Assembly (NCBI GenBank): GCA_964427875.1
Contig: CAYRVX010000003.1
Location: forward strand, 46,910 to 110,909
Direction: 5' to 3'
Source of the DNA: an uncultured Planctomycetaceae bacterium
Lineage (GTDB): Bacteria > Planctomycetota > Phycisphaerae > SM23-33
DNA length: 64,000 nucleotides
The position numbers were made by a program, and so were the translations under genes. The stretch's first letter is position 1. Every line of letters begins with the position of its first letter. This document shows positions 28,226 through 45,934 of this stretch, piece by piece. Below the pieces are notes generated by a model. The model was given only the letters and a program-made list of their open reading frames with translations. It was not told the origin of the DNA and made no database searches.

Positions 28226-31200
28226 GTGAGCAATCTGAACTGGCAGCCGCCGCTGTTCGAGCAAATGGAGCCCCGTTTGCTGCTCAGCGCTTCACCGGTG
28301 CCGGAGGAGATCGACCTTCCGGCCTTCAGTGAGCAGTGCGTCACGGGCGGCCTCGACGTCGGCGAATCGCAGATGTACGTCTTCACCGCGGCGGCCAGCG
28401 GGTACGTCTACATGAACATGGGGGCCGCCGAAGGCAGCGGGGTCGATTCCTACCTGGAGGCCTTCAACTCCGGCCTGCGCAGGATCGCCCGGAACAACAA
28501 CGCCAGCAGGTACACTCAGGACAGCCGGATCCGCCTGCGCGTTAGCACGGGGCGCACGTACTACGTCCGCGCGAGGGGCGCCGCAGGAACCGATGGCGAC
28601 TACGAGCTGACGCTCACCAGCCGGCCGTACGACGACTACGGCAACACCGCCGAGGCGGCCAGGGCCCTGCGGGTCCGCCGGAGCGGCTCGACGTCGGCTC
28701 GCGGCAGGATCAACTGCGTCGGCGACACGGACTGGCTGTCGTACACGGCCCGCGACGACGGCCTGGTGCGTGTACGGATGCTCGCCTACGGCCGAGGTAA
28801 CAAGCTGGTCGGCTCGCTCGGCGTCTACGACGCCGCCGGCAACCTCATCACCAGCCAGGTCGCAGAGGAGAGCCACTGGTTCGAGCTGAGCTTCTCGGCG
28901 CTCAAGGGGCAGACGTATTACCTGGAGGCCTCCGGCGGGGAGAACACCACGGGCAGATACCTGGTCAAGGTGCTGCCGATGATCCTTCAGGAGTTCATCG
29001 ACGCAGAGGAGGTGGACCTTCCTGCCTTCAGCGAGCAGTCCGTCACGGGCGGCCTCGACGTCGGCGGGACCCAGATGTACAAGTTCACCGCGACGGCCAG
29101 CGGGTACGTCTACCTGAACATGAAGGCCGCCGAAGGCAGCGAGATCGACTCCTATCTGGAGGTCTTCAACCCCGGCCAGCGGAGGATCGCCCGGAACAGC
29201 AACGCCAACAGGTACACTCAGGACAGCCGTATCCGCCTCCGCGTTCGCGCGGGGCGCACGTACTACGTCCGCGCGAGGGCCGCCGGAGGGACCGAGGGCG
29301 ACTACGAGCTGACGCTCACCAGCCGGCCGTACGACGACTACGGCAACACCGCCGAGGCGGCCAGGGCCCTGCGGGTCCGCCGGAACGGCTCGACGGCGGC
29401 GCGGGGCAGGATCAACTGCATCGGCGACACGGACTACTTCTCGTACACCGCGCGGGGCAGCGGCCTGGTGCAGGTGCAGATGATCGCCTACGGCCGATGG
29501 AACAAGCTGTCCGGCATGCTCAACGTCTACGACGCCGCCGGCGACATGATCGCCAGCGATCACGGCGGCGTGGGCGGCACGTCCGCCCTGAGCTTTTCGG
29601 CGGTTAAGGGACAGACGTACTACATGGCGGCCTCCAGCGACGACAACAGCACGGGCAGATACCTGATGAAGGTGCTGCCGATAATCCCGCAGGAGTTCAT
29701 CGACGCGGAGGAGGTGGACGTCCCGGCCTATGGCGAGGAAACCGCCGCCGGCGCCCTCGACGTCGGCGGGACCAAGATGTACAAGTTCACCGCGGCGACC
29801 AGCGCGTATCTCTATCTGGACATGGCCGCCGCCGACGGAAGCGCGATCGACTCCTACCTGGAGGTCTTCAACTCCGCCCGGCGCAGGATCGCCCGGAACA
29901 ACAACGCCAGCAGGTACAATCGGGACAGCCGGGTCCGCATCCGCGTTCGGGCCGGCCAGACCTACTACGTCCGCGCCAGGGCCGCCCGGGGAACCGAGGG
30001 CGACTACGAGCTGACCTTCACGAGCCGGCCCAACGACGACGCGGGCAACGACATCGATCACGCCGCGTACCTTCAGCTCGAAAGCGACGGCTCCCGCCAG
30101 GCCCACGGGAAGGTCAACTATGCCGGCGACATCGACGTGCTGGAGATCGTCGCCCCCGTGACCGGCGAGATGACCGTGACGGCTGCGGCGCCCGGCGGGG
30201 ACGGCAGCATCACGCCGAGGCTCCGGGCCGATGACTCCACTGGCGAGCAACTGGTGATCGACGAAGACGGCGACGCCGCCTGCACCGTCACGTTCGGCGT
30301 GGTCGAGGGCGAGACGTACTACCTGAGGATCGCCAGCCTGGACGACAACACGGGCCGGTACGAGCTGATGGTGTCGACCGACACGGACGTCGATCCGGAC
30401 CCGGCCCCCGACCCCGACCCCGACCCGGACCCGGTTCCGCCCGACGATCCCACGCCGGGCGAGCTCGTCACGGGATGGATCAGCGAGGAGCCGGGCGGCT
30501 ACCGGCTGATCGTCGCCGGGACCGACAGCAGCGACATCATCACGCTGAGCGTCAGCGGCTCGGTGACGACGCTCACCTACGCCAGCGGCTCACTCGACTT
30601 CGCCGGCGTCTTCGACGACATCTCGATCTACGGCTTCGGCGGCGACGACGTGATCCGCATGGACTACTCGATCGCCGGCTCGGGCATCGTCTACGCCGGC
30701 GAGGGCAACGACACGGTATACGACAACAGCCTCGGCGCCGCAGGCGTGTACGGCGGGGCGGGCGACGACCTGCTGATCAGCCTCGGCGGCGGCGTGGACA
30801 GCCTCTGGGGCCAGGCGGGCTGCGACAGCTTCTGGGTGGACATGGGCGACTCGCTCGGCGACGCCGACTCCGCCGAGTACGACGCGACGGCCGTCCACCG
30901 AATCACTCAGTTCTATCAGCCCTACTCCGCGGTCCCCGGCTCTGCGGATTACGTCTCGATGGAGATCGCCGGGCAGAACTTCCGCGACCCCACACCCACC
31001 AGCTACGGGCGAGCGTGGGTGAACTTCGCGAGCAACCCGCTCTTTGCCGACGGGCCGGAACACAACGACATCCGCCAGGGCTCGGTAGGCGACTGCTACT
31101 TCCTGGCGTGCCTGGCCAGCATGTCCGACAGCGACCCGAACGTGATCCGCCAGATGGTGACGGCCCTGGGTGACGGGACGTACGCGGTGCGGTTCTTCCG

Positions 31201-34900: not shown

Positions 34901-36149
34901 GGCCAAGGGAGAAGTCAAGGAGCTTCAGCGAATCCTGCGATCGAAAGACGGGAGGCTAGCGCAACTCGGCTTGTTAGACTCGGCCTCCTTGCGCACTCCC
35001 GCACGCCGGCCGGACCTCAGGGCCGTCACGAAGACGTACGACGTTCGCGACTTGGTCTTCGGCGGGGGCGAAGCCGGCCGGCCGAGCGCGGGGGCAGGTG
35101 ACGACAAGCCCCGGGAGAAGGTGGCCGAGGACCTGGTCAGGACGATCCGCGGGGCCCTGGGCAGGGAAGTCGTCCTCGGCGACGCTGGTATCCAGATCTC
35201 CAACGGCAGGCTTGTCGTGAGCGCGACCGGCGGTGGCCAGAAGCTCGCGGCCGACCTGTTCACGAGGCTTCGGGACATCCGCGGGCCGCAGGTCGAGGTG
35301 GGCGGCAACATCGCCCAGCAGAGGGCGGCCGGACTCGTCCGGGCCCAACGCGACGTCAACGGCGACGGTATCGACGCGCCGGTGGCGGCCGCGTACCGCC
35401 CGAAGCAGCTCGCCGAGCAGCGGGAGTTCCAGGAGTTCCTGAGGCGAAACTACGATTGGGAGGTCGAGGCCCGACGGGCGGACGGCGGCTGGAAGTATGG
35501 CCGGTCCATGTCGAGCTATCTGCCGGCCCTGGACAGCTCGGGGCAGGCCCGGCGGTCGAGGGATCCGGCCAAGGTCACGCACGAGATAGCGGGCAAGTTG
35601 CTGATGAATGTGGGCCAGAAAGTGGCGGTCAACAGCACGAACATCTCTCTGGGTTCCGCGGCCGCCAACGCGTTGGGCATCCACTTTGCCGAGGGCCGCA
35701 ACGACATCCGCTACGCCGTCGTGGACGAGGCCCAGTTGCGGACGCTGCGCGAGATGGAGGCCCGGCGGCCGGGCGAGGGCAGGCCGGTCGCCGCCAACCC
35801 GCGGTTCCAGGAGACCATCGTCGGCACCGACGCGCTGCTGGCCAGCGGGCAGGTCGCCAACGTCACCTTCGCCGGCGACCGCGGCAACACGATCGACATC
35901 TACAGCAACCCGATCGCCCTGACGCACGAGAAGTACGTTCTGATCGACAACCACGACTACCTCACGGCCGTGCAGACCGGCCAGATGCAGCACTGGACCC
36001 AGCGGGCCAAGCCCCTCCGGTTCGCGGAGGTCCCTCAGGACATCGAGGTGCCCCGCGTGGGACGGCTGGTGAAGCTCGAGAAGACACTGATCAAACCGGC
36101 GGACGCACTGACGATCCGCGCCGAGTACACCTGGACTGGAAAGGAGTAG
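31905..36149 (+). CDS. Giant (1414 aa) secreted protein: N-terminal unknown beta-rich domains (paralogous to the next gene), Pro-rich linker, TPR-like helical region and a secretin-N-like (type II/III secretion 'short') domain
   Basis: Signal MRRIAVICAGAMLGSWALASAA. A YEIRNRSRQFLRLHLP...LLPLVRS...FPVQIV block shared with the 36154 gene. TPR-like RNYYRAGRDYYERGDYDKAAISLENTLRMAP. A secretin-N motif VTITADETANALVLTAPPGQRDKIVELLQQLD. No secretin beta-barrel C-domain seen. Confidence 0.6.
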   Translation: MRRIAVICAGAMLGSWALASAAERPGRDDVVRALLKRSRLLEDVRFTVPGSLYREYLRIASVGEAMFPAPVASIAGNGRYHLALDAAGRPALVATVALRVFKPRRCRNLPVLTAEWAWEKVAVNGAPASLAARKGWLRFTPRKAGRYVVSGQIGLSKGRADGGKVSFGIPRTVRTSLRFDSPGRWRVAVSGSPHRLLGQAPGGTHGELAVTPRERIEVEYTRPVELPPRPPRYELRGATAWNLDAGRQQIAARLRVRILGGRTDRLILQLPASARRVTITGPDVREAQVSPAGAAIFLRGTIAGQTRLTVGYELPLGAGSIQRLGRPELADGRWSGGTLAVTNTAGASEILPHAVRGLREIHPEDLPAEARGMLAGKCVLAYQITSRFFSAAVDVVDLGEFALRESIADLAHYRLLLRPDGSVLCKVDYEIRNRSRQFLRLHLPRGARVLVARVNDKPRPLTPLLDEPGAHLLPLVRSQASVKGLVSFPVQIVVLMRGKALRREGLAAVPLPRIDLPIAYGWCELHVPRDMAVDRWAGPMQHVERYSSETAVASLTYGRAELAEGYKLEDRPTVEAVPEGQPQRRPKRPPPPIALAKPPELKPTRPTEEPARPFGPATQPAATEILATKVTVPEGGTLILGGQVMLSRNYYRAGRDYYERGDYDKAAISLENTLRMAPKSAEAANAARLLANIKAVRGKLAAKSRQEKALTRQVKKEISGLNVKLEQQQRELIEQAGEAVRGGRRDEAAAGYQAAVSLGEQLIARGADEREQSVRLRDAKEELDRLQKQKQARATQLRTRYEVLKTAGQYGEALKIGKALQEVYEDKGEQQRLRGELEELAATTVRDKARHGATMAVQAATEVFTLEHAEARSVARVLSEMFAGRGQRGSAARSSRGPSTGRDQRVTITADETANALVLTAPPGQRDKIVELLQQLDAADSDANTERITAEGTSGFLPAAPRNIPALKLHASELREQKKHADALAVAGHVLRMAPADDWAKGEVKELQRILRSKDGRLAQLGLLDSASLRTPARRPDLRAVTKTYDVRDLVFGGGEAGRPSAGAGDDKPREKVAEDLVRTIRGALGREVVLGDAGIQISNGRLVVSATGGGQKLAADLFTRLRDIRGPQVEVGGNIAQQRAAGLVRAQRDVNGDGIDAPVAAAYRPKQLAEQREFQEFLRRNYDWEVEARRADGGWKYGRSMSSYLPALDSSGQARRSRDPAKVTHEIAGKLLMNVGQKVAVNSTNISLGSAAANALGIHFAEGRNDIRYAVVDEAQLRTLREMEARRPGEGRPVAANPRFQETIVGTDALLASGQVANVTFAGDRGNTIDIYSNPIALTHEKYVLIDNHDYLTAVQTGQMQHWTQRAKPLRFAEVPQDIEVPRVGRLVKLEKTLIKPADALTIRAEYTWTGKE

Positions 36150-36153
36150 AACG

Positions 36154-38154
36154 ATGAAACGAACGGTAGTGGCGGTAGCGGCTGTCCTGATCGCCGCGGG
36201 GGCCTGCGGGCCCGCGCTCGCCGAGGCGCCGAAGCTCGGCGAGGGCAAGGGGCAGGTCACGTTGAGCTGGGACGAGTTCGTGAGGATCACCGGCTACGAC
36301 CCCGCGAAGAAGGGCTCACAGGTGCTCACCATCCCCTGGGCGCAGGTGGAGGACCTCACCGGGCTGAAGGTGGACGGCGCCATGAAGGGCGCCACCGTGG
36401 ACCTCAAATGGGGCGAGTTCCGCGCCCTGCTCGAGTGGTCGATCAAGCGGAAGGACGAAGTGCCTCCGCCGGCCGACTACATCGTCACCTCCAGCCGGTA
36501 CACCGGCAGCCTCTCCGATGACGGCGCCGCCTTCAAGCTCGCCGCGAAGATCAACATCCTCCGCAAGAAGGGCTGGAAGAAGGTCCCCATCCTCCCGGTC
36601 ACCGTCGCCCTGACCAAGACCGAGCTTCCCCAGGGGGTCTTCCTCAACGCCACGGGGACGAACTACGAGCTGCTCACCGACCAGTCGGGACCCATCGACG
36701 TGAGCATCGAGTTCTCCGTGGCCGTCAACAAGAGCGCCGGCATCAACCAGGTTGGCTTCAAGCGAGTATTGGCCGGCTCCAGCGTGCTGGACCTGACCAT
36801 CGCGCGCGAAGAGGTGGACGTGAAGGTGGCCGACTCGCAGTCGCTGGTGAGCAAGACCGTGAACAAGCAGACGCAGGTGATCGCGGCGGTGCCGTCGAAT
36901 GCGGCCGTCGCCATCTCGTGGGAACGCGCGCTGCCCAAGGTGGCGGCCGCGCCGACGAAGCTCTACGCCGAGGTCGGCACGCTCGTGGCCGTGGCCGAGG
37001 GAATGCTCCTCTGCCAGGAGGTGGTCAACTACAACATCCTTCACACGGCGGTGCGCGAGTTGAACCTCCAGGTGCCCGCGGGCGCCAGCGTCCTGACGGC
37101 AAGCGGCTCGAACTTGCAGGACTGGCGCGTGGACAATGACGGCAAGCTCCAGGTGGTGCTCAAGGCCGAGGTCATCGGCAGCTACACGCTGCGGATCACC
37201 TACGAGCAGGCGAGCAAGGCGGGGGCCGAGACGCCCGTGATCCACCCGGTCGGCGTCGAGAGGCAGCGCGGGTACGTCGGCGTGGTGGCCGTCGCCAACG
37301 TGGAGATCGCCGCCGGAAAGGTGGACGCCGCCACCGCCATCGACGTGCGCCAACTGCCCGCCGACATCGTCTCCATGACCAATCAGCCGATCCTGCTGGC
37401 CTTCCGCTACCTGGGCGAGCAGTTCAAGATCCCGCTGACCATCAAGAAGCACGCGGAGGTCGGCGTCCTCGTGACGATCGTCGACAGCGGCGTCTTCACG
37501 GCCATGCAGCTCGCCGACGGGCGGAGGATCACCAAGGTCATCTACTCCGTCCGCAACAACCGGAACCAGTTCCTTCGGCTGAAGATGCCCGAGGCCTCGG
37601 AGATCTGGTCGGTCTCGGTCAGCGGCAACACGGTCTCCCCGGCCAAGGACGAGGCCGGCAACGTCCTGGTGCCCCTGGTGCGGAGCTCGGGCGGCGCCCA
37701 GGAGCTGGCGGCCTTCCCCGTCGAGATCGTCTACGTGGAGACGCCCAAGGCCCAGGTGCCCGAGCGAGGCCAGATCCACGTCGAGCTGCCCGCCTGTAGC
37801 GTTCCCGTCGTGCACGTGATGTACAGCTACTACGCGCCGGCGGAGGGCAAGTACACGGTCGGCTGGGGCGCGAGCGGCTTCTCCGGGCCGCTTCAGGTGG
37901 TCGAGGAGTTCACATCGCTGGCAACCGGCGCCGGCCGGCAGATCGTCCGCCTCGACGCCACCAAGCAGGCCAAGCAGATGCAGAAGGCCTTCGACGCCCG
38001 CGTGGACGCCAAGGCGAAGGCCGCAGGGGCCACGCCTATCCGCGTCCGCCTGCCCATCAACGGCAAGCTGTTCAAGCTGGAGAAGATCCTCGTCCTGCCG
38101 AACGACAGGCTGTACTTCGACCTCCAGTACAGGGACTGGAAGGTCCCGAAATAG
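36154..38154 (+). CDS. Secreted 666-aa protein, paralogue of the N-terminal ~550 aa of the preceding giant protein (unnamed domain family)
   Basis: Signal MKRTVVAVAAVLIAAGACGPALA. It shares the YSVRNNRNQFLRLKMP...VLVPLVRS...FPVEIVYVE block and upstream beta-strand pattern with the 31905 gene. It starts 5 bp after the 31905 gene's stop. Confidence 0.55.
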   Translation: MKRTVVAVAAVLIAAGACGPALAEAPKLGEGKGQVTLSWDEFVRITGYDPAKKGSQVLTIPWAQVEDLTGLKVDGAMKGATVDLKWGEFRALLEWSIKRKDEVPPPADYIVTSSRYTGSLSDDGAAFKLAAKINILRKKGWKKVPILPVTVALTKTELPQGVFLNATGTNYELLTDQSGPIDVSIEFSVAVNKSAGINQVGFKRVLAGSSVLDLTIAREEVDVKVADSQSLVSKTVNKQTQVIAAVPSNAAVAISWERALPKVAAAPTKLYAEVGTLVAVAEGMLLCQEVVNYNILHTAVRELNLQVPAGASVLTASGSNLQDWRVDNDGKLQVVLKAEVIGSYTLRITYEQASKAGAETPVIHPVGVERQRGYVGVVAVANVEIAAGKVDAATAIDVRQLPADIVSMTNQPILLAFRYLGEQFKIPLTIKKHAEVGVLVTIVDSGVFTAMQLADGRRITKVIYSVRNNRNQFLRLKMPEASEIWSVSVSGNTVSPAKDEAGNVLVPLVRSSGGAQELAAFPVEIVYVETPKAQVPERGQIHVELPACSVPVVHVMYSYYAPAEGKYTVGWGASGFSGPLQVVEEFTSLATGAGRQIVRLDATKQAKQMQKAFDARVDAKAKAAGATPIRVRLPINGKLFKLEKILVLPNDRLYFDLQYRDWKVPK

Positions 38155-38453
38155 GGCATGGTTCAAACATGCGCAGCCGGTAGCCGAAGCGGCCAGGGCC
38201 TTGGCACATTTGTGAGCCCAAGATCCGAAGGTCGTTGCCGGCTGCCGGCTGCCGGCTGCGCTGGTCTCGTGGCGACCGGTCCGTTACCGCCGAGCCGACT
38301 GCAACCAAACACTGACCCCTGCTGAACCAACCCCGAATCACCCCCGGCAAAATCTTGCGCCCGCCCTCGTAAATGCCTATTTCACAGGTGTTTATAGACG
38401 CAATCGCCCAAAATGGCTTTGTTTCGTAAAAAGACTTATGCCGGACCATTCGC

Positions 38454-38498
38454 AGCCACAAAGGTCACAAAGGTCACAAAGGTCACAGAGGTCACGGG
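38454..38498 (+). repeat. Tandem 9-mer (aggtcacaa) x4-5
   Basis: gccacaaaggtcacaaaggtcacaaaggtcacagaggtcacgg. An inverted partial copy aagtgaccg lies at 38511-38519. Confidence 0.8.
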
Positions 38499-38542
38499 GT
38501 AGATAACTCAAAGTGACCGATTCGCCAGCTTCCCGGGAGGTG

Positions 38543-38732
38543 CTCGTTGACTCGTGAATTCGTTAACTCGTTGATTCGTCAAGAACTCCGCCCTGGCCAC
38601 TCGGCGGATTCGTTGCACGACCCATGGCAGCCGGCACAGCTTCTCAGTTGCCGAGCCAGCAAAGCAAAGCCCAACATCTCTTCGGGCAATATCTTTCCAG
38701 TTAACGAGTTAACGAATTAACGGATCAACGGG
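38543..38732 (+). repeat. Pair of ~28-bp inverted repeats (cgttgactcgtgaattcgttaactcgtt / aacgagttaacgaattaacggatcaacg) bracketing ~130 bp: a MITE-like or protein-binding element
   Basis: Arm 1 at 38543-38572. Arm 2 at 38703-38732, which is the reverse complement with 2-3 mismatches. The arms are built from cgtt(a/g)a(c/t)tcgtt sub-repeats. Confidence 0.6.
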
Positions 38733-39080
38733 CAACCCGTAAGCCAATCAGGATCGGTCAGTTTGAGTAGATAAGATATCGAAATGGCGTGCTTTTGCAA
38801 ACGCGCAACGGACAGAGTGTTCTCTCACGGCCCCGAGCGTTTCTGTCGTAACCGCCTGCAAAATCATAACCTTTGTGTTCTTTGTGCCCTCTGTGGCGAA
38901 CAATCCGCGTTTGGCTTCGTTTCGCGTTTTTCTTCTGATCCGCCGCCTTCCTTTTCCTTGTGATCACGATCCCCCCGTAGCAGGCATATACATCTCGCAG
39001 CCCTTTTTGCACAACGAAAATCGCCAGATTGCAGAAAAACTTCCGGCCGCGCCCGCCGGCAAGGGCGGGCGTAGGCTGAA

Positions 39081-39233
39081 GGTCGTAGGTCATAGGTCGT
39101 AGGTCGTAGGGCAGACCGTGGGACCGGATACCGTGGGGCCGTGGGACCGGATACCGTCGGACCGCAAGACCGTGCCACCGGATACCGTCAGACCGGCAAT
39201 CGTCCTCGTCGTCGTCCTCGTCCTCGTCCTCGG
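39081..39233 (+). repeat. Consecutive micro/minisatellite blocks: (ggtcgtag)x4, a ~23-bp unit (ccgtgggaccggataccgt) x3, and (cgtcct)x5
   Basis: Read directly: ggtcgtaggtcataggtcgtaggtcgtagg; gaccgtgggaccggataccgtggggccgtgggaccggataccgtcgg...ccgtgccaccggataccgt; cgtcctcgtcgtcgtcctcgtcctcgtcctcgg. Confidence 0.8.
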
Positions 39234-39246
39234 CCGTCTCTTCTCG

Positions 39247-39450
39247 GGGTTCCGAGTTCCGGCCTCCTCGGGGGCAGGCGGCCGTGCCGGCCGCCGTTAA
39301 ACGCTCCGCGCCTCCCTGCCCGGTAGGCAGCCTCCGGGTTCCGAGTTCCGAGTTCCGACCTCTTCGGGGCCAGGCGGCCGTGCCGGCCGCCGTTAAACGC
39401 TCCGCGCTCCGGGCTCCGGGTTCCGAGTTCCGCCTTCCCGGTTCCCGCTT
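39247..39450 (+). repeat. ~96-bp-period direct repeat (2 full + 1 partial copies), each with the perfect palindrome ggcggccg-tgc-cggccgcc and (gttccga)n
   Basis: Copies at 39247-39311 and 39337-39407 (gttccgagttccg.cctc.tcgggg.caggcggccgtgccggccgccgttaaacgctccgcgc). A partial copy sits at 39416-39450. Confidence 0.75.
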
Positions 39451-39454
39451 GCGA

Positions 39455-39500
39455 CTTCGTCATTCGTCATTCGTCATTCATCATTGATCATTCGGCATTG
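39455..39500 (+). repeat. Tandem heptamer (tcgtcat) x3 with degenerate copies (tcatcat, tgatcat, tcggcat)
   Basis: cttcgtcattcgtcattcgtcattcatcattgatcattcggcattg. Confidence 0.8.
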
Positions 39501-39739
39501 CTTCTCCCTTGCTTCCCCCGCCCCGCGCGGTATCCTGAATGAGACAAAAGGGCCTGCCGCTCACCGGGCGGCCGTCCGGGCAAAGCGGCAGGAACCAACG
39601 GGGCGGTGAGTGTGTCCCGCTCGCCATCATGAAAGCGTTATCTCGTTCATCCGTTCACTCGTTCACTCGCGGTCGCGGAGACGCCCGCGCAGGGCCGACG
39701 CGCTGATTCCGGGCACTCCTCGACCGTCGCCCCCGACTG

Positions 39740-42244
39740 CTAGGTGCTGATCTCGGTGACTAGGCCGACTTGCTGGGCAATGGGCGTATACAGATCCACC
39801 TCGGTTGCCGGGGTGCTGATGGTGATGATCAGCGCGTATCGCGTCTGCTTCTCGACGAAGCCCAAATGCTTGCGCTCGCGCCACCAACCGGTGACGGGGG
39901 ACACGGCTACCTGCCCGCACTGCGCAACGTAGCTGGCAGGCGCTGTCCACCAGTCCGAATGAATCGAGCCACGTGTCTGGAGCTTCGCACCGATCGTCCA
40001 GTCGATCGGATCGCTTGTAGACGGTCGGGCTTGCTCTTCTTCCCATTCCTGGCTGCTGATTCGCTGACGGAATTGCCTCTCCGTTTCGATCGGCCCTCGG
40101 AGTTTGAATCGCAGCCCATGAGAGGCATAACGGAACTTCCTGCGCCATCCCCGACGGCCGGGACTCGGCTCGACGAAATAGGAAAGCGTAATCCGAACAG
40201 TCACGTCTTGCTGGTGAAGGGCCTCCAGGGCAGCCCTCGGCCACGGCAACGAGTGGAGGACAAAGTGATTCGTCTTTGCCTTGGTGCCATCCAGCTTGAA
40301 TGGCTGAATCGCCCCCTGATGGATAAGCGACACGCAGTTCTCGACGGTATACCTGGCGCGCTCAAGGTTCGGTACGCCGTATCCGAAACAACGCAGGCGA
40401 GCATGACGTTCGTCCTGCCGGTTGCCGCGAACCTGACGCAGCATCTCGCCGGTCCACTCAGCCGAGTGGACGAGGAGGCCCCGAACCGTTTCCGGCCAGA
40501 GCTCGGGATAGTCGGCCATCAGGATGGCCGCAAGCCGGGCGGCCTGGGCAGTCGCGGCGCTCGTGTCGCCAGTCCATGTCAGCAGCCGACCCGTCGGGTC
40601 GAGTGAAGTGGTGAGCAGTGATAGATCATCGCAGCCGTCGATCTGACCCCCTGGTGATTGGGCGTAGTTGCCGCCTTCCATAACGATGTCCGGCTTCAGT
40701 GGCCATCTTCGGTCGTCCCAAGCGCGAGACGTGCGACTGGTCGGACAGAGGCCGCCTAGCGGCGCCACCGCCTGGTAGCCGTCGAAACCTATTGAGCTTA
40801 TCCGCACACGCTCCGTGAAGGCACCTACCGTCAAGGCATTCCAGCTCTGGCCGGGGTCCTCGATGCCGTTGGATGAGAGGTTGGTCTCGGGGTACGTATA
40901 CGAGGGATCCGTTGTGACATCACGGATGTTCCCGGCGGCGACCACGTACAGCCGCTGATGGCCGTCACGCTGACCCGCTGCGTGCTGGTCAATGGCCCCG
41001 GACCAGGAAGTCGGGCAACCGTGATCTCTACCCATATCAGCGGCTGTGATCGGAAGGCAGGCGACACGGCTGCGCTTGGGAGCTTGGGTCTCGGCCATGG
41101 CCAAGCTGGCTTGAGTGACGTAGCCCCATGAGTCCTCGGGGTGTGGCCGGGCGCTGTGGAGCATCCGAACGGACTCCAGGCGGTGCAGGAGTGCATGTGC
41201 CTCGGTGTTCCTAAGCAGGTCGGCAAGATGGTCGCCGAAGATGGCCAGGCCAGCGATCTCCGTACCATGGGCCTCGGCATGGTCGACCACCGGCCACGTC
41301 GGGTCCAAAGCCTGCGCGTCCTCGTCCGCAATCAACGGGCGCAATAGCGGGTGGGACGTATGCACGCCATGGTCGAGCAAACACACAGCCGGTGCGTCGG
41401 CGTGCGGCAAGACCAATCGGCCGACCAAGTCCTGGACGAACTCCCGCTGTTCCCGGGCTTGCAGGCGAAGGAACTCCGTGGGCACTTCCTTCGCCCGTCG
41501 TAATTCTGCGAGTCGATCAAGTAGCGGAACGAAGACTCGCGTCCATTGCGCGGGTGTTCCGAAGGCAAGGAAAACAAGGCGTTCAGGGAACGGAATGACG
41601 TGCTGACTCAGTTGCAGCTGAGTGTCCGCCGTTGCAGCTACAAACTCGGCGAAAGCCGAATCTGGGTCTTCATCTGCCGCAACGCGAATCCAGACCTCCC
41701 ACCAGATGGCTTGGTTCTCAGTAGCTGGGTATAGGCTCTCGTCGTCGGTCCAGAATGATGCGAGAACTGGGAAACGAATGCCGCTGATACCGGTGACCAG
41801 GTCTTCGTTCTTTGGGCGGCCGGATGGATAGCCTTCCGTTGGTGCCGTATTCTCGGTTTCGTACCGCTCGATCTTGCGAACGTACTTCTCGAGTTGCCCG
41901 TCGGGGACGTAGACCGTCGCGTGCAGACGGCCGTCATGGACTCGTGTGGAAAGCACTTCCACTTCAGGGCGGAGCTTTCTGTTCTCAAGGCTTTCGATCT
42001 TGAGGTCATACTTCCGCACGTCTTCGCCAACGACCTCAAGACACAGATCGCGTATGACATGGCCCGACTCACCGGCAAGGGATTTCGCATCTTCCACGGC
42101 CTTCTCTACGTCACCGATCAACTTCCGAGCATGGGCGCGTCGGTCACGCGGAGGCATTCTGAATTCACCTCCGCCCCCGGGCGGCCTGGTGTAGTTACGG
42201 GCCTGTCCGGGCTTCGTGATGAGAACATGTCGATGTCGCGCCAT
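39740..42244 (-). CDS. Subtilisin-like S8 serine peptidase, large (834 aa), IetS-like
   Basis: Catalytic-residue contexts LLDHGV (Asp), HGTEIAGLAI (His), VVAAGN (Asn) and GDTSAATAQAARLAAI (Ser). The gene has lower GC and different codon usage than its surroundings. Confidence 0.75.
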   Translation of the reverse strand: MARHRHVLITKPGQARNYTRPPGGGGEFRMPPRDRRAHARKLIGDVEKAVEDAKSLAGESGHVIRDLCLEVVGEDVRKYDLKIESLENRKLRPEVEVLSTRVHDGRLHATVYVPDGQLEKYVRKIERYETENTAPTEGYPSGRPKNEDLVTGISGIRFPVLASFWTDDESLYPATENQAIWWEVWIRVAADEDPDSAFAEFVAATADTQLQLSQHVIPFPERLVFLAFGTPAQWTRVFVPLLDRLAELRRAKEVPTEFLRLQAREQREFVQDLVGRLVLPHADAPAVCLLDHGVHTSHPLLRPLIADEDAQALDPTWPVVDHAEAHGTEIAGLAIFGDHLADLLRNTEAHALLHRLESVRMLHSARPHPEDSWGYVTQASLAMAETQAPKRSRVACLPITAADMGRDHGCPTSWSGAIDQHAAGQRDGHQRLYVVAAGNIRDVTTDPSYTYPETNLSSNGIEDPGQSWNALTVGAFTERVRISSIGFDGYQAVAPLGGLCPTSRTSRAWDDRRWPLKPDIVMEGGNYAQSPGGQIDGCDDLSLLTTSLDPTGRLLTWTGDTSAATAQAARLAAILMADYPELWPETVRGLLVHSAEWTGEMLRQVRGNRQDERHARLRCFGYGVPNLERARYTVENCVSLIHQGAIQPFKLDGTKAKTNHFVLHSLPWPRAALEALHQQDVTVRITLSYFVEPSPGRRGWRRKFRYASHGLRFKLRGPIETERQFRQRISSQEWEEEQARPSTSDPIDWTIGAKLQTRGSIHSDWWTAPASYVAQCGQVAVSPVTGWWRERKHLGFVEKQTRYALIITISTPATEVDLYTPIAQQVGLVTEIST

Positions 42245-42262
42245 GGGAACTCCCCGATCGGT

Positions 42263-43252
42263 TCACCTTGGTTTCCCACCGGAACGCCCACGTTGGGATA
42301 GAGCACGCTTCAGTTCGCTGGTCAGTATCTTCCGGCGTCCGTCGAGAACCGCATCTTTTGCCGCCTCTTCGCATGCCTTCACGATATCGGCGTGGGGCAT
42401 GCCTTTCGCCGTGTCCAGGATCGACCGCCAGCCAAGACGCCGAATGTCGAAGCTGCTGAGTCGGTTCTCGACGAGCCTCCGGGCCATGGTCGCAGTGGGC
42501 AATCCGTAGCGCACCGTGTCATCGAAGCGCCGGAACAGCGCCGAGTCGAGCGAGCCCTCGAGGTTGCTGGCCGCGATGATGAGCCCCATCGAGTCATCTT
42601 GTTCGAGGAAGATGAGGAATGAGTTGAGGACACGCCGGATCTCCCCGACATCATGTCCGCCATGACGATGAGCCCCGATAGCGTCGAACTCGTCGAACAG
42701 ATACACGGCGCGAGACTGCTTCATGGCGTCGAAGACAAGGCGGAGTTTGGCCGCTGTTTCGCCCATGAACTTCGTGATGAGTGTATGAAACTGAACCGTC
42801 AGGAGCGGCAAGCGCAGCTCACCGGCCAACGCGGCAGCCGTCATGGACTTCCCGCAGCCAGGCGCCCCAAGCAACAACAGCTTCCGGCGGGGAACAAGGC
42901 CGTGCGTGTGCAGACGGTCGACTTGGCGGTACTCGACCAGGACACGGTCGAGGCGCCGCTTCAGTTCGACCGTCAGAACCATGTCTGCCAGATGCGTATT
43001 CGGGAATGTGGCGGCGAAGAGACCGCTTAGCTCCCCCGTCGGCTGAGCAATTGGAACGGATTTCAATGGCGCTGGCTGCGCGGCTTGCATGCGACGAGCT
43101 TCGTCCACAAGGTGCCGAAGCTCTTCGGCGAGCTTCTTCTTCCCAGTTCTGGCCGCGTGTGCGGCGATCTGAGAGGCAACGGACAAGAACCGCTCCGGAT
43201 CTCGCTCCGTGTAGCTCTCGATCAGTGCTTTAACTTGTTGGGCTGTGGCCAT
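42263..43252 (-). CDS. AAA+ ATPase (classic AAA family), IetA-like
   Basis: Walker A LLLLGAPGCGKS, Walker B VYLFDEFDA, and sensor/arginine-finger region IIAASN...LDSALFRRFD. It ends 19 nt upstream of the S8 peptidase start, giving a two-gene operon. Confidence 0.8.
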   Translation of the reverse strand: MATAQQVKALIESYTERDPERFLSVASQIAAHAARTGKKKLAEELRHLVDEARRMQAAQPAPLKSVPIAQPTGELSGLFAATFPNTHLADMVLTVELKRRLDRVLVEYRQVDRLHTHGLVPRRKLLLLGAPGCGKSMTAAALAGELRLPLLTVQFHTLITKFMGETAAKLRLVFDAMKQSRAVYLFDEFDAIGAHRHGGHDVGEIRRVLNSFLIFLEQDDSMGLIIAASNLEGSLDSALFRRFDDTVRYGLPTATMARRLVENRLSSFDIRRLGWRSILDTAKGMPHADIVKACEEAAKDAVLDGRRKILTSELKRALSQRGRSGGKPR

Positions 43253-43591
43253 GTGGGCGCCTCAATCGACACGGCCGACCTATGCTCAGTCCTGGCGTAG
43301 CCATTGGCTTCGCCAAACTAGACGACCAGAGCAACTGCTCGCCCTTCGACCGGCCATCCGCTTTCCTTGTTGTTGCTTCGGCCTGACGGACCCGCTCATT
43401 CGCTTCGCGGCCTCGGCAGGAAACTGCCTTAGCCAGGTTTCCCGGATGAAGTTCCGCCGCAATCATCGGGAACCTCTTTGATGATTGTATCTTGTCCCCA
43501 AGCCCTGGCAAGGCTGTTTCCGGTTCTCGTAAGCCCTCATTAGCGTCCCGTTGGGCCGCCATTCCGTTGGGAACGACCTTCGGCAGGCCCT

Positions 43592-44320
43592 TTGGGCCAG
43601 GTGGGGAGCTTCCTGGACCTGGCCACATGCGAGGGCCTCGATTCCGCAATCTTCTCGGATCCCGCCTTCCTGCCGACCTACCTGGCCCGCGCCTTCGAGT
43701 ACGCCCACGACCCCGGGACGGAAGACGCCCAGCGATGGCCCCACTTCGTCGAGACGGTATTAGCTCGGATCAAGGCGCTCCGCAGTCTGTACGCCGACGT
43801 CGAGCCGCCGCCGCGGCTCGTCGAGGCCGTCGAGGCGATCACCGCCGAGCTCATCGAGTACTTGGCCCGGCACCCGCGGGCCCTCTACCGGATCAGGCCC
43901 CGCCAGTTCGAGGAGCTGATCGCCGAAATCCTCGCAAGCTACGGCTGGCAGGTGCAGCTCACACCTGCCAGCAAGGACGGCGGCTACGATCTTCTTGCCA
44001 TCTCGAAGGACGCCTCCGATCTGGAGACCTCCTGGATCGTCGAGTGCAAGAAGTATGGGCCCGAGAACAAGGTCGGCGTGGAGATTGCCCGGGCGCTATA
44101 CGGCGTCAAGACGGATCTCCGCGTCGCCAGTGCCCTCCTCGCGACGACGTCGCACTTCACCAGAGGCGTGAAGGCCTACAAGGCCTCGCATTACGATCTG
44201 GAGCTTCGTGATTACGAGGGCATCCTGGAGTGGATCAACACCTACCGTCCCAACCCCGACGGCAGGCTCTACATCAAGGACAACCGCCTGATCCTCCCGG
44301 GCGACGAACGCCCGGCGTAG
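43592..44320 (+). CDS. Mrr-catalytic-domain restriction-endonuclease-like protein
   Basis: The PRQFEELIAEILASYGWQVQLTPASKDGGYDLLAISKD...WIVECKKYGPENKVGVEIARALYG pattern is the Mrr_cat (PD-(D/E)xK) signature. The N-terminal ~100 aa are of unknown function. Confidence 0.65.
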   Translation: MGQVGSFLDLATCEGLDSAIFSDPAFLPTYLARAFEYAHDPGTEDAQRWPHFVETVLARIKALRSLYADVEPPPRLVEAVEAITAELIEYLARHPRALYRIRPRQFEELIAEILASYGWQVQLTPASKDGGYDLLAISKDASDLETSWIVECKKYGPENKVGVEIARALYGVKTDLRVASALLATTSHFTRGVKAYKASHYDLELRDYEGILEWINTYRPNPDGRLYIKDNRLILPGDERPA

Positions 44321-44396
44321 CGCGGTCGGGCTTGGTGACAGAAAGAACAACGATCCGCACAAGAGGTTAATGGAACGCGGGGGGGCGTGGGGTATT

Positions 44397-44514
44397 TGTT
44401 TAGCGGGCCGGCTTGCCGGCCACTCCTCGGCCGGCAGGGCCGAGGCCCTTGCGTCGTCCGGCGGAAGACACGGCCGGCAACCTGTCTGCCGACAGGCAGA
44501 GCCGGGCCGCTAAA
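44397..44514 (+). other. GC-rich ~120-nt element with long-range complementary arms and nested hairpins (candidate structured RNA / attenuator)
   Basis: gtttagcgg (44397-44405) pairs with ccgctaaac (44506-44514). Internal hairpins include gccggc-ttg-ccggc and tctgcc-gaca-ggcaga. It lies between the Mrr-like gene and the exbB/exbD operon. Confidence 0.25.
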
Positions 44515-44684
44515 CCATTGAACGATGCGCTCAGTTTAGCTCGCATGCGGATCGTTGATAACATTGCCCTGCTCCCGGAACCGGGCTTCGGATGAGACGT
44601 TCCTACTATGTGCTGTTCTTGAGGTGAGCTCCTTCGTTACAATCCCGGGCAGATGAGGCGGCCGGGATCAGGGAGGACCGCAGT

Positions 44685-45506
44685 ATGCGGGAACGGAAAT
44701 GGCAGTTGAGGACGGTTTGGGCCGCGTTGCTGGTGTTGCTGGCTGCCGCGGCGCCGGTGACGGTCGCGCAGGAGGGCGAGCCGCCCGCGGCGCCGACGAA
44801 GAGGGCGGCCGAAGGCGCAGCCGACGAGGAGGTCGAAGGCCTCGCCATGGACGCCCCGCAGACGCTCTGGGAGTCGCTGGAGGCGCAGTGGAGCACCCTC
44901 TACAAGCTCGGCGGGCGGACGATGATCGCCCTGGCGGCCGCCTCGATCATCGGCTTTGCGTCCCTGCTGGAGCGGGCGATCAGCCTGCTGCTGGCCTCCT
45001 TCAGCATAAGGGGCCCCGTCAGGACCGCCGGGGCCATGTGGAAACAGGAGAGGTTTGGTGACCTCGAGAGGCTGGTCGGGAGCAAGTCGGGCATTACGGC
45101 CCGTCTGATCGACTTCATCGTGCGGCACCGCGAGTATCACATTGCGGACGTCTCGGCCGCCGTGGGCGATCTCGCCAGCCGGTATATCAAGCGGCACATT
45201 CGCCGGAACTACTGGCTGCTCGTCGTGGCGGGGATCAGCCCGATGCTGGGTCTGCTCGGCACGGTCCTCGGGATGATCGAGGCCTTCGAGAAGGTCAACA
45301 TCGCCGGGTCGATGGGCAGCGCGAAGTATCTCTCGGGCGCGATCTCCAAGGCGCTGATCACGACGGCCACCGGACTGGTCATCGGGATCCCCGCGCTGTT
45401 TTTCTATCACGTTTACAAGTTCCTGACCGGCGTGCTGGCCGACACGCTGGAGGGCAGGGCCAATGAAATGGTCACCGGCTGGCTCATGAGGAAGGAGGCC
45501 GCCTGA
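44685..45506 (+). CDS. MotA/TolQ/ExbB-family proton-channel protein
   Basis: Signal plus three TM helices. A C-terminal conserved block GLLGTVLGMIEAF...ALITTATGLVIGIPALFFY. Confidence 0.85.
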   Translation: MRERKWQLRTVWAALLVLLAAAAPVTVAQEGEPPAAPTKRAAEGAADEEVEGLAMDAPQTLWESLEAQWSTLYKLGGRTMIALAAASIIGFASLLERAISLLLASFSIRGPVRTAGAMWKQERFGDLERLVGSKSGITARLIDFIVRHREYHIADVSAAVGDLASRYIKRHIRRNYWLLVVAGISPMLGLLGTVLGMIEAFEKVNIAGSMGSAKYLSGAISKALITTATGLVIGIPALFFYHVYKFLTGVLADTLEGRANEMVTGWLMRKEAA

Positions 45507-45934
45507 TGAGAATCCGACTGACCGGCGAGGAGGCCGAAGGCGAAGCCAGGATCCAGATGGCCCCGCTGATCGACTGCGTCTTCCTGCTTCTGAGCTTCTT
45601 CCTGGTCACTGCGGCCCTGCGGGAGATCCACGTGGAGCTGCCGCTGGATCTGCCCGATGCGGGTGCCTACGTGAAGGCCAAGGCGGTGGACAACACCATC
45701 GTCATCTCCGTGACGAAGGACGGGACGATCCACCTGGCCGACACGCCCGTGAACACGCGAACGCTCCTGTCGAGGCTGCGGGCCCACGCCAAGACGCCCA
45801 ACGCCCGCGTCCGCGTGGACGGCGACCGGGCCTGCGCGTTCAAGCACATCGCCTACGTGCTGGACCTGTGCCAGTTCGAGGGCCTCAACAACGTGGGGGT
45901 CCGCACGAAGGCCCCCCCCCGGCCGGGGAGGTGA
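45506..45934 (+). CDS. exbD: ExbD/TolR-family biopolymer transport protein
   Basis: INMAPLIDCVFLLLSFFLV N-terminal anchor. A periplasmic domain with ...VRVDGDRACAFKHIAYVLDLC... Its ATG overlaps the upstream stop. Confidence 0.85.
   Translation: MRIRLTGEEAEGEARIQMAPLIDCVFLLLSFFLVTAALREIHVELPLDLPDAGAYVKAKAVDNTIVISVTKDGTIHLADTPVNTRTLLSRLRAHAKTPNARVRVDGDRACAFKHIAYVLDLCQFEGLNNVGVRTKAPPRPGR

Follow-up and report, generated by a model that had tools for sequence, protein, structure and literature searches.

A gene-free repeat tract beside a planctomycete IetAS-Mrr defence islet is probably a nest of small non-autonomous selfish elements

Introduction

What fills 1.6 kb of densely repeated, gene-free DNA between two convergent genes is the question raised by a stretch of 64,000 nucleotides from an uncultured planctomycete (contig CAYRVX010000003.1; hereafter the window). 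The tract in question, positions 38155-39739, lies between a + strand open reading frame (ORF) of 666 aa, which ends at 38154 and belongs to no Pfam family, and, on the - strand, the gene for an S8 peptidase, with its stop at 39740; the convergent arrangement proposed in an earlier reading made from the letters alone (the sequence-only reading) is therefore correct. That reading had suggested that the tract could be an integration scar, a protein-binding array, a source of small RNAs or a phase-variable region. Our analysis points, with a probability of roughly 0.7, to a nest of small non-autonomous selfish elements, forming non-coding filler in a newly acquired islet that carries the IetAS and Mrr defence genes, at a safe site between two 3' ends.

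Results

A miniature transposable element in the core of the tract

The guanine-cytosine (GC) content is 0.51-0.56 across 38200-38999 and 0.62-0.74 in the remaining DNA. Fifteen of the 25 rows returned by Tandem Repeats Finder for the 64-kb window fall in 38236-39669; counted as distinct arrays, ten are found in the 1.6-kb tract and ten in the other 62 kb, that is ~6 per kb versus 0.16 per kb elsewhere. Moreover, three inverted pairs are nested around a common centre near 38637-38676 (Table 1). The region 38440-38910 folds better than its shuffled versions on both strands (z -8.4 and -8.9), as is expected of any DNA palindrome.

The middle pair delimits a miniature inverted-repeat transposable element (MITE), 38507-38767. 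Its terminal inverted repeat, 15 nt in length and written here as CTCAAASTGACCGAT, is complementary at 14/15 positions between the two ends (38507-38521 vs 38753-38767), which are bordered by the two copies of TAGATAA listed in Table 1; the allele of the site free of the MITE would read ...CACGGGGTAGATAAGATATCG... The one ORF of at least 50 aa (57 aa) had no Pfam hit.

The terminal 15-mer was scanned in one genome per species (185,579 species, 596 Gb), a volume in which chance 15-mer matches are expected, and was found at no fewer than 120 loci. About 43 of the 120 listed are Planctomycetota metagenome-assembled genomes, often with the match at a contig end; among the matches listed, the phylum is represented by Phycisphaerae, Sedimentisphaerales, Pirellulales and Planctomycetales, and those outside it are single and unpaired. 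Both ends, inverted and 90-460 bp apart, occur at 20/120 listed loci, 19 of these 20 being labelled Planctomycetota. When the 7 nt adjoining each end were compared by script in 22 copies (the 20 paired ones, the full-length copy described below and that of the window), 11 perfect 7-bp duplications and three at 6/7 were obtained, shifted controls giving a mean of 2.0/7; the target of the family is T-W-A-N-T-W-A.

A full-length copy with the same ends was identified in Sedimentisphaerales (L093:4655-6009; 1,355 bp, duplication TTAGTAA). In Pfam, its single 437-aa ORF falls under DDE_5 and DDE_Tnp_1; among the NCBIfam models those for IS701 rank highest (E 1.5e-37), although with scores below the curated cut-offs (transpos_IS701_3, 129.5 bits vs 170; transpos_IS701, 113.7 vs 150). 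In ISfinder descriptions the target duplication of IS701 elements is 4 bp, in some cases 5 bp. We have kept the parent element out of the curated IS701 family because its scores do not reach these hidden Markov model thresholds and its duplication is 7 bp, not 4-5 bp. At E<=1e-10 the transposase has 1,149 homologues; most lie on 1.3-2.5-kb contigs, and several of the homologues are named 'SRSO17 transposase' by the Joint Genome Institute (JGI). Having terminal inverted repeats, a target duplication, a small size with no transposase gene, and a full-length partner with the same ends, 38507-38767 is a MITE by every criterion testable on this sequence.

Specific to Planctomycetota, the family seems to be unnamed. 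Several copies per genome are present in other Planctomycetota assemblies, e.g., JAKJEQ01 (L024, L040, L059). Interiors vary between copies, often consisting of short tandem arrays plus a GC hairpin; in particular, copies L017, L018, L083, L104 and L122 hold tandem heptamers, a GC hairpin and then TTTAAA(A)AC or a T-rich stretch, and like modules are also found away from MITE ends (L042, L065, L090, L122, L132).

The MITE lies inside a heptamer-armed hairpin

Once the MITE and one TAGATAA copy are removed, 175 bp of the outer layer (38456-38896) are left, in which the two arms fold onto each other. These arms are made of C-R-C-R-R-A-G heptamers at 9-nt spacing, four on the left and three on the right, comparable to those of L145, L183, L251 and the Bacteroides locus L263. 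Scanning metagenomes with CACARAGNNCACARAGNNCACARAG (three CACARAG 9-mers) gave 120 loci or more; among the 120 listed, at least two inverted CTYTGTG units within 600 nt were found downstream at 46 and upstream at 12. These CACARAG hairpins span 54-474 bp, on contigs of 40-71% GC, with termini TT(A/C)(A/G)C^CACAGAG...CTCTGTG^G(T/C)NAA (the caret marking the hairpin boundary). The window hairpin ends, GC^CACAAAG ... CTCTGTG^GC, fit the consensus ..(A/G)C^CACAGAG ... CTCTGTG^G(T/C).., the TTCA/TGAA extension being absent. By a crude ORF-based count, eight hairpins lie between convergent genes, 11 between co-directional ones and one between divergent ones. In Planctomycetota, CACARAG-type arrays came up as chance finds at L036:5283-5412 (an inverted pair) and at L056:4517, ~35 nt from a MITE.

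Successive heptamers are separated by 2-nt spacers, which are complementary between arms at a rate of 0.40, not beyond the 0.33 expected by chance (n = 10). Since the spacers pair no better than chance, it is the heptamer that is conserved rather than the stem; complementarity of the kind maintained in an RNA stem was looked for and not seen at the spacer positions. From this pattern, the heptamers probably serve as protein recognition sites for the spread or maintenance of the element. The protein-binding array proposed in the sequence-only reading may hold to this extent, as binding sites for the transposases or nucleases of mobile elements. When 18 loci with intact CACARAG hairpins were searched against Rfam, the matches were limited to a tRNA and part of a group II intron, neither of them at the hairpin.

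CACARAG hairpins wrapping or holding other inverted arrays (CACGAAG, CGCAGAGGA, TACGAAGGA), or followed by same-strand arrays (GGTTCAC, GTAGAGAA), were observed at L169, L157, L210, L136 and L192; nesting of unlike arrays is thus not unique to the window.

Similar arms enclose GxxExxY nuclease genes

At four of the 120 listed metagenome loci the arms directly flank a gene of ~120 aa (L188:7364-7726, L243:234-590, L173:1996-2343, L205:2507-2860). The product belongs to the GxxExxY proteins (TIGR04256, E 1.4e-40; Pfam PDDEXK_3, PF13366, E 5e-41), a family whose function is listed as unknown and for which 'multiple transfers' have been noted (PMC3424549). We examined the genes of these four loci, of L034, of six IMG/VR loci (L255-L260, of which two do not differ in the stretch inspected) and of four finished replicons (L261-L264), and all of them lie tightly between inverted arms of tandem units of 9-13 nt. 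The Pirellulales gene L034:6255-6572 has arms of GATTAACA-type 9-mers, and in the IMG/VR loci, which are phage-like contigs, the units of the arms measure 9 to 13 nt, one locus having the termini TTCACCACAA...TTTGTGGTGAA. In Bacteroides finegoldii the arms are TTCACCACAGAGGACGCAGAGGACACGGAG / CTCTGTGACCTCTGTGTCCTCTGTGGTGAA and the unit sits between radA and the gene for an FAD-protein; in Sphingomonas parapaucimobilis, with CGCGAAGGN units, it sits between fabD and fabG; CGCAGAGGN units form the arms in Gemmatirosa, and the Bernardetia replicon shows the same layout.

In the window, tblastn detected no GxxExxY gene, and the loop of the hairpin, ~100 nt, holds no ORF. The window hairpin matches the gene-less short form found at 30 or more metagenome loci, and we read it as the gene-less form of a cross-phylum cassette for the GxxExxY PD-(D/E)XK nuclease, whose loaded form ends in TTCAC.../...GTGAA. 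Three features argue for the mobility of this cassette: it occurs in several phyla, it is squeezed closely between housekeeping genes, and it is found with and without its gene. The GxxExxY gene looks like its cargo.

MITE copies were also seen in the company of these cassettes. At L034:6108-6267 one lies inside the GxxExxY gene at TTATTAA, where the conserved LLINF motif is encoded; both the window and L056 have a MITE in or beside a CACARAG array, so that three of ~22 copies are tied to cassettes, an association probably explained by the AT-rich target sites that cassettes offer. A small palindrome, (TGTCA)TTCCCGCGAAAGCGGGAAT(CC), recurs as well (L004, L032:542, L034:6177, L065:3364, L082:7497, L177:8030, L247:844), within MITE copies of different Planctomycetota genomes and in the loop of the CACARAG hairpin L177, and may be a third small dispersed element.

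Repeat inventory and the right half of the tract

All the repeat families named in the sequence-only reading were recovered. Its aggtcacaa x4 corresponds to CACAAAGGT x4.3 at 38457-38495, its cgtcct x5 to the TCGTCC array, its tcgtcat x3-6 to the TTCGTCA array, its threefold 23-bp unit to x2.2 plus a third copy, and its ~96-bp direct repeat with GC palindromes to a unit present x2.1 at 39248-39445, each copy of which contains the hairpin GGCGGCCGTGCCGGCCGCC. Two descriptions needed amendment: the inverted pair described as 28 bp around a 130-bp core is present with that distance between its arms, which measure 32 nt, and the array given as ggtcgtag x4 exists with a period of 7, not 8. Three arrays (TGCCGGC, CTCGTTCA and AGTTAACG) and the outer and middle inverted pairs had gone unlisted, and with them what had been overlooked, namely that the two innermost layers of inverted repeats correspond to two separate elements of mobile type, one inside the other.

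Table 1. Features of the repeat tract, of the island that contains it and of its deletion variant (window coordinates).
Feature	Position	Strand	Details
MITE, IS4/IS701-superfamily insertion-sequence family	38507-38767		261 bp; terminal repeats CTCAAAGTGACCGAT and (reverse complement) CTCAAACTGACCGAT
Target-site duplication TAGATAA, left	38500-38506		read from the sequence; 7/7 identity scripted
Target-site duplication TAGATAA, right	38768-38774		7/7 identity scripted
MITE interior	38541-38572 / 38703-38734; near 38585-38610		inverted 8-mer arrays; GC hairpin
Outer hairpin, left arm	38456-38499		C + CACAAAGGT x3 + CACAGAGGT + CAC
Outer hairpin, loop	38775-38868
Outer hairpin, right arm	38869-38896		CTTTGTG tt CTTTGTG cc CTCTGTG G
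Outer inverted pair (9-mer arrays)	38455-38483 / 38869-38897		inverted-repeat search
Middle inverted pair	38506-38521 / 38753-38768		inverted-repeat search
Inner inverted pair	38541-38572 / 38703-38734		inverted-repeat search; 32 nt, 130 nt between arms
GC-rich hairpin	38171-38261 (arms 38171-38186 / 38246-38261)		I7; 16 nt, 94% complementary; includes TGCCGGC array
TGCCGGC x3.4 array	38236-38259		Tandem Repeats Finder
AGTTAACG x3 array	38699-38722
GC hairpin just before AGGTCGT array	39040-39081		inverted repeat I9
AGGTCGT x4.4 array	39080-39110	+	Tandem Repeats Finder; no inverted partner
23-31-nt unit, three copies (GACCGTGGGACCGGATACCGTNG)	39113-39195	+	family D4
TCGTCC x5.5 array	39200-39232	+	Tandem Repeats Finder
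96-bp unit x2.1	39236-39445	+	per copy TCCGAGT heptamers, hairpin GGCGGCCGTGCCGGCCGCC, then GTTAAACGC
TTCGTCA x6.3 array	39456-39499	+	Tandem Repeats Finder
CTCGTTCA-type array x3.5	39636-39669 (x3.5 at 39642-39669)	+	resembles MITE internal arrays
121-bp deletion	38388-38508		L001:3561/3562 junction; takes left 9-mer arm, left TAGATAA and 2 nt of MITE end
Inserted island	38159-44556		tract, IetS (-), IetA (-), Mrr-like nuclease (+, 43601-44320), 236-bp tail

The arrays of the right half (39040-39739) all run on the same strand, with GC hairpins between them. A 28-mer of the 96-bp unit occurs exactly twice in the window, with 0 occurrences expected by chance, and the unit shares the layout of MITE copies (heptamers, GC hairpin, T-rich stretch). 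The CTCGTTCA array is identical at 22/26 positions to the reverse complement of the right internal array of the MITE, and its local alignments with the MITE internal arrays score 28 and 32, the maximum of the shuffles being 25-26; to judge from this similarity, it may be the relic of a second MITE copy. Taking the right half as a whole, the odds are roughly even that it consists of mobile-element relics reshaped by slippage and duplication. A scan of metagenomes for the hairpin of the 96-bp unit gave 0 matches, and weighs neither way as the known carrier contig was also missed.

Clusters of unlike short arrays recur in Planctomycetota. Arrays of the 11-mer ACAAACCCAAT were seen in two unrelated contigs of the phylum (L065:104-190, L132:3480-3625), the second of which also carries, downstream of an IetS gene, CACTTTAGC 9-mers and CGAGNNNN 8-mers. 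Period-7 arrays number 17 in 288 kb of Planctomycetota loci vs 14 in 556 kb of others, a ~2.3-fold excess that we deemed too weak for a phylum-wide trait.

The tract belongs to a 6.4-kb insertion with defence genes

The exact 666-aa protein was found on contigs of two JGI metagenomes and of one Sequence Read Archive run, and its named homologues belong to Planctomycetota, mostly Phycisphaerae. Next to orthologues 96% (L127), 91% (L126) and 72% (L128/L129) identical, exbB-exbD follow within 160-320 bp (160-190 bp in the first two relatives), and beyond them a 448-aa gene, joined in L126 by a NikR_C gene. In the window, the same exbB-exbD block starts near 44685. By blastn, L127 (93-94% nucleotide identity) aligns with 35037-38158 and 44557-45660 only, and L126 behaves alike; since these relatives align only to both sides of it, 38159-44556 is a 6.4-kb insertion. 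Its left boundary is the beginning of the tract, 4 nt past the stop of the conserved 666-aa gene. What follows the 666-aa gene is variable: in an 80%-identical lineage (L124/L125) it is NikR_C directly, with neither exbB-exbD nor the 448-aa gene.

PADLOC assigned the AAA ATPase of the island to IetA (E 3e-66) and the S8 peptidase to IetS (E 5e-26), the two components of an Ietat defence system, and the 239-aa Mrr-like protein to mREase_IV, a type IV restriction-like nuclease. The IetAS and Mrr islet is a recent, horizontally acquired insertion between conserved genes of a Phycisphaerae-like planctomycete. The proposed boundary of a lower-GC island is thus upheld, as tract, S8, AAA and Mrr genes are inserted together. 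The suggested integration scar fared differently, as no integrase or transposase was found in the island and no convincing direct repeats bracket it. At four loci with IetS 70-80% identical to that of the window, nothing comparable lies downstream of the gene, the intergenic regions measuring 123-584 bp and being unrelated in sequence.

At the left boundary (38160-38175) only a TCAAAC hexamer is in common. About 15 nt inside the right boundary, GCTAAACTGAGCGCAT (44525-44540, -) matches the MITE terminal repeat with three edits and in the right orientation; such 3-edit matches number 11 in the window vs 6 +/- 3 by chance. The weak resemblance is suggestive of a derivative that carries cargo, yet does not go beyond what chance predicts, and an island bounded by degenerate MITE ends was discarded as a candidate for this reason. 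Elsewhere in the window, the gene for a 1,222-aa calpain-like protein (Peptidase_C2) contains an internal direct repeat of ~1 kb (85% identity, 702-bp offset; 28304-29338 / 29006-30040), seen as secondary blastn hits.

Absence of coding, RNA and promoter signals, and stability of the arrays

On an identical contig, JGI calls no gene between the 666-aa ORF and the S8 peptidase, and none of the ten longest ORFs of the tract has a significant Pfam match, in agreement with the lack of a credible ORF noted from the letters. Rfam returned 0 matches at the gathering threshold for the whole window and nothing credible at E<=5 for the tract, leaving the suggested source of small RNAs without support, and a search for tRNA and transfer-messenger RNA found none. 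The sole match to an Rfam CRISPR-DR model had E = 1.4 and 17.8 bits vs a gathering score of 45; the arrays, head-to-tail with 6-9-nt units and not 24-48-nt repeats with unique spacers, are indeed not CRISPR-like, as had been stated. Scans of the tract for sigma-70 promoters and terminators did not exceed shuffled controls.

Three independent assemblies cover the tract in part (L001 from 38509 rightwards, L002 to 38625, L003 to 38280). All the arrays that they cover are identical to those of the window, the overlap between L001 and L002 being limited to 38509-38625. This identity, and a location between two 3' ends, outside any promoter or reading frame, speak against the phase-variable region that had been suggested. 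L002 and L003 stop inside the tract, at 38625 (near the centre of the MITE) and 38280, respectively. According to blastn and alignment, L001 lacks the 121 bp 38388-38508 and is 99.99-100% identical elsewhere, the deletion separating populations of different metagenome samples. We considered a transposase-mediated adjacent deletion; with 2 nt of the terminal repeat lost and no microhomology, an ordinary deletion is likelier. The variant illustrates one route by which an arm can be lost and an orphan array left.

Discussion

As the probable course of events under the reading of the tract as a nest of non-autonomous selfish elements, the IetAS and Mrr islet would have landed between two conserved genes, at convergent 3' ends that would tolerate further insertions with little harm done. 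An IS4/IS701-superfamily DDE transposase supplied by full-length copies would mobilise the MITE in trans, by cut-and-paste with a presumed 7-bp staggered cut. The MITE inserted into the 175-bp CACARAG hairpin, probably drawn by the low-GC core of the tract, its target being T-W-A-N-T-W-A. The right-hand 700 bp may derive from decayed or rearranged element remnants expanded by slippage and local duplication. The hairpins, if transcribed from either side, would probably terminate transcription or insulate the two convergent genes from each other.

Several observations weigh against this reading. The 64-kb window holds one MITE copy and no transposase, so that activity in the host genome is putative. 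At the loci examined, CACARAG hairpins show no target duplication and no empty-site allele; it is from their distribution that we infer their mobility. In the right half, neither terminal repeats, target duplications nor, window-wide, inverted partner arrays were found, and its units repeat every 6, 7, 8 or 23 nt instead of every 9. Short-word blastn against the 120 genome and 120 metagenome loci fetched found nothing similar to the right half, the matches of the whole tract being only to the MITE terminal repeat and to CACARAG arrays; a mobile origin of the right half is thus suggested by shared architecture and by one significant similarity to the MITE internal arrays.

Alternative explanations were weighed against the same evidence. 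The tract could serve the IetAS/Mrr islet as a functional cis element or as a non-coding RNA, e.g., a structured 3' untranslated region (UTR), a decoy or sponge RNA with ACGA-type motifs, or a protein-binding array; it does lie directly downstream of ietS in the same inserted island, and its right half is strand-asymmetric (GC skew to -0.15, AT skew to -0.35), with one-strand arrays that have a TCGT/ACGA core in common. This role appears unlikely to us, as the four IetS loci mentioned above have nothing comparable, Rfam gave no matches, and units that differ from array to array ill fit a single binding protein. A role as the end at which the island recombined, either an attachment-site scar or the terminus of a larger cargo-carrying transposon that brought IetAS and Mrr, is quite unlikely for the tract: a start exactly at the left boundary, 4 nt past the stop, and the terminal-repeat match near the right boundary would suit such an end, but there is neither integrase, transposase nor bracketing direct repeat, the 3-edit match is not significant alone, the left boundary offers TCAAAC only, and other IetAS pairs have a different repeat tract, or none, at their ends.

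Hypermutability would come easily to ten arrays of short units (periods 6-9 nt, prone to slippage), and the 96-bp unit is a local tandem duplication, so that a phase-variation locus, or a purely local product of slippage with no mobile elements involved, has to be considered. We regard either as very unlikely, given that the arrays covered by the three assemblies are identical to the window and lie outside promoter, 5' UTR and coding frame, that two layers demonstrably belong to dispersed families, and that slippage alone leaves ten different units in one 1.6-kb spot unexplained. Least credible of all, with hardly any probability left to it, is a decayed pseudogene or the replication or partition site of an integrated plasmid. 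Tandem 7-9-mers superficially resemble iterons or parC-type centromeres, and a ParB_N gene lies ~10 kb away; nevertheless, the ten units differ from array to array, unlike iterons, the island has no rep or par gene, and ParB_N is kept in a relative devoid of the tract. The pseudogene was rejected since no gene was called, the longest ORFs carry no protein-family signal, and close relatives lack the whole region instead of having an intact gene there.

The preferred reading, a nest of selfish elements, can be set beside several known systems. Correia/NEMIS in Neisseria, RUP in Streptococcus and Nezha in cyanobacteria are examples of bacterial MITEs that descend from DDE insertion sequences. Like them, the window element is small and non-coding, has ends identical to those of a full-length element, a target duplication and many copies across genomes, and is associated with assembly breaks; unlike them, its family is Planctomycetota-specific, makes a 7-bp duplication in T-W-A-N-T-W-A and has interiors that are not conserved. 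The L093 copy resembles the IS701 family of the IS4 superfamily in encoding a single DDE transposase with IS701 models as best NCBIfam match, and departs from it in the scores and in the duplication length reported above. For conserved heptamers with free spacers, the best analogy is offered by the eukaryotic hAT and CACTA transposons, whose subterminal repeat arrays, e.g., the AAACGG hexamers of Ac/Ds, likewise comprise multiple short direct and inverted motif copies; these belong to another domain of life and to other enzymes, and protein binding to the CACARAG units is only putative.

Repetitive extragenic palindromic (REP) sequences are 20-40-nt palindromes with a GTAG or CGTC head (PMC3733652). 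CACARAG hairpins share with them, and with bacterial interspersed mosaic elements (BIMEs), a short palindromic form, an intergenic location mostly downstream of genes and rarely between divergent ones, and the absence of target duplications. Nevertheless, their arms are heptamer arrays at 9-nt spacing with non-complementary spacers, they occur in several phyla at 40-71% GC, the GTAG in the AGGTCGT array of the window lies outside any palindrome, and the GxxExxY nuclease gene is found inside the hairpin, unlike the RAYT tyrosine transposase of REP/BIME, which is encoded elsewhere in the genome. Comparable short tandem repeats are the STRR sequences of cyanobacteria. Intergenic TAACTGA heptamer repeats are described in Beggiatoaceae, Cyanobacteria and Bacteroidetes, with one unit dominating a genome and lying mostly just upstream of start codons (PMC4679880). 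The window has in common with these repeats tandem 7-nt units (2-6 or more copies), an intergenic and sporadic occurrence and a suspected horizontal spread, and differs in crowding ten units into one 3'/3' tract, some of which form inverted arms. A MITE inside a hairpin is of a known kind, and both families appear to be undescribed: literature searches (sequences, Planctomycetes MITEs, GxxExxY, PDDEXK_3) found no description, and Rfam has no model for either.

A bolder and tentative generalization, which on balance we would bet against, is that inverted arms of tandem units (9-13 nt; in many bacteria C-R-C-R-R-A-G + 2 nt) may form the termini of an unrecognised cross-phylum class of selfish cassettes with the GxxExxY nuclease, which would leave gene-less hairpins as insertion sequences leave MITEs; the arrays would then be recognition sites of the nuclease, the tract a graveyard of arms, and the orphan arrays their relics.

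With these results an odd repeat tract becomes an annotated structure, which matters for assembly, as contigs break inside it, and for annotation. An IS4/IS701-superfamily element with MITEs that make 7-bp duplications adds to the poorly described mobile elements of Planctomycetota. The arms around GxxExxY genes provide a testable hypothesis, namely that the protein recognises the heptamer arrays and that the unit acts as a selfish cassette; the array-armed GxxExxY cassette may merit study on its own.

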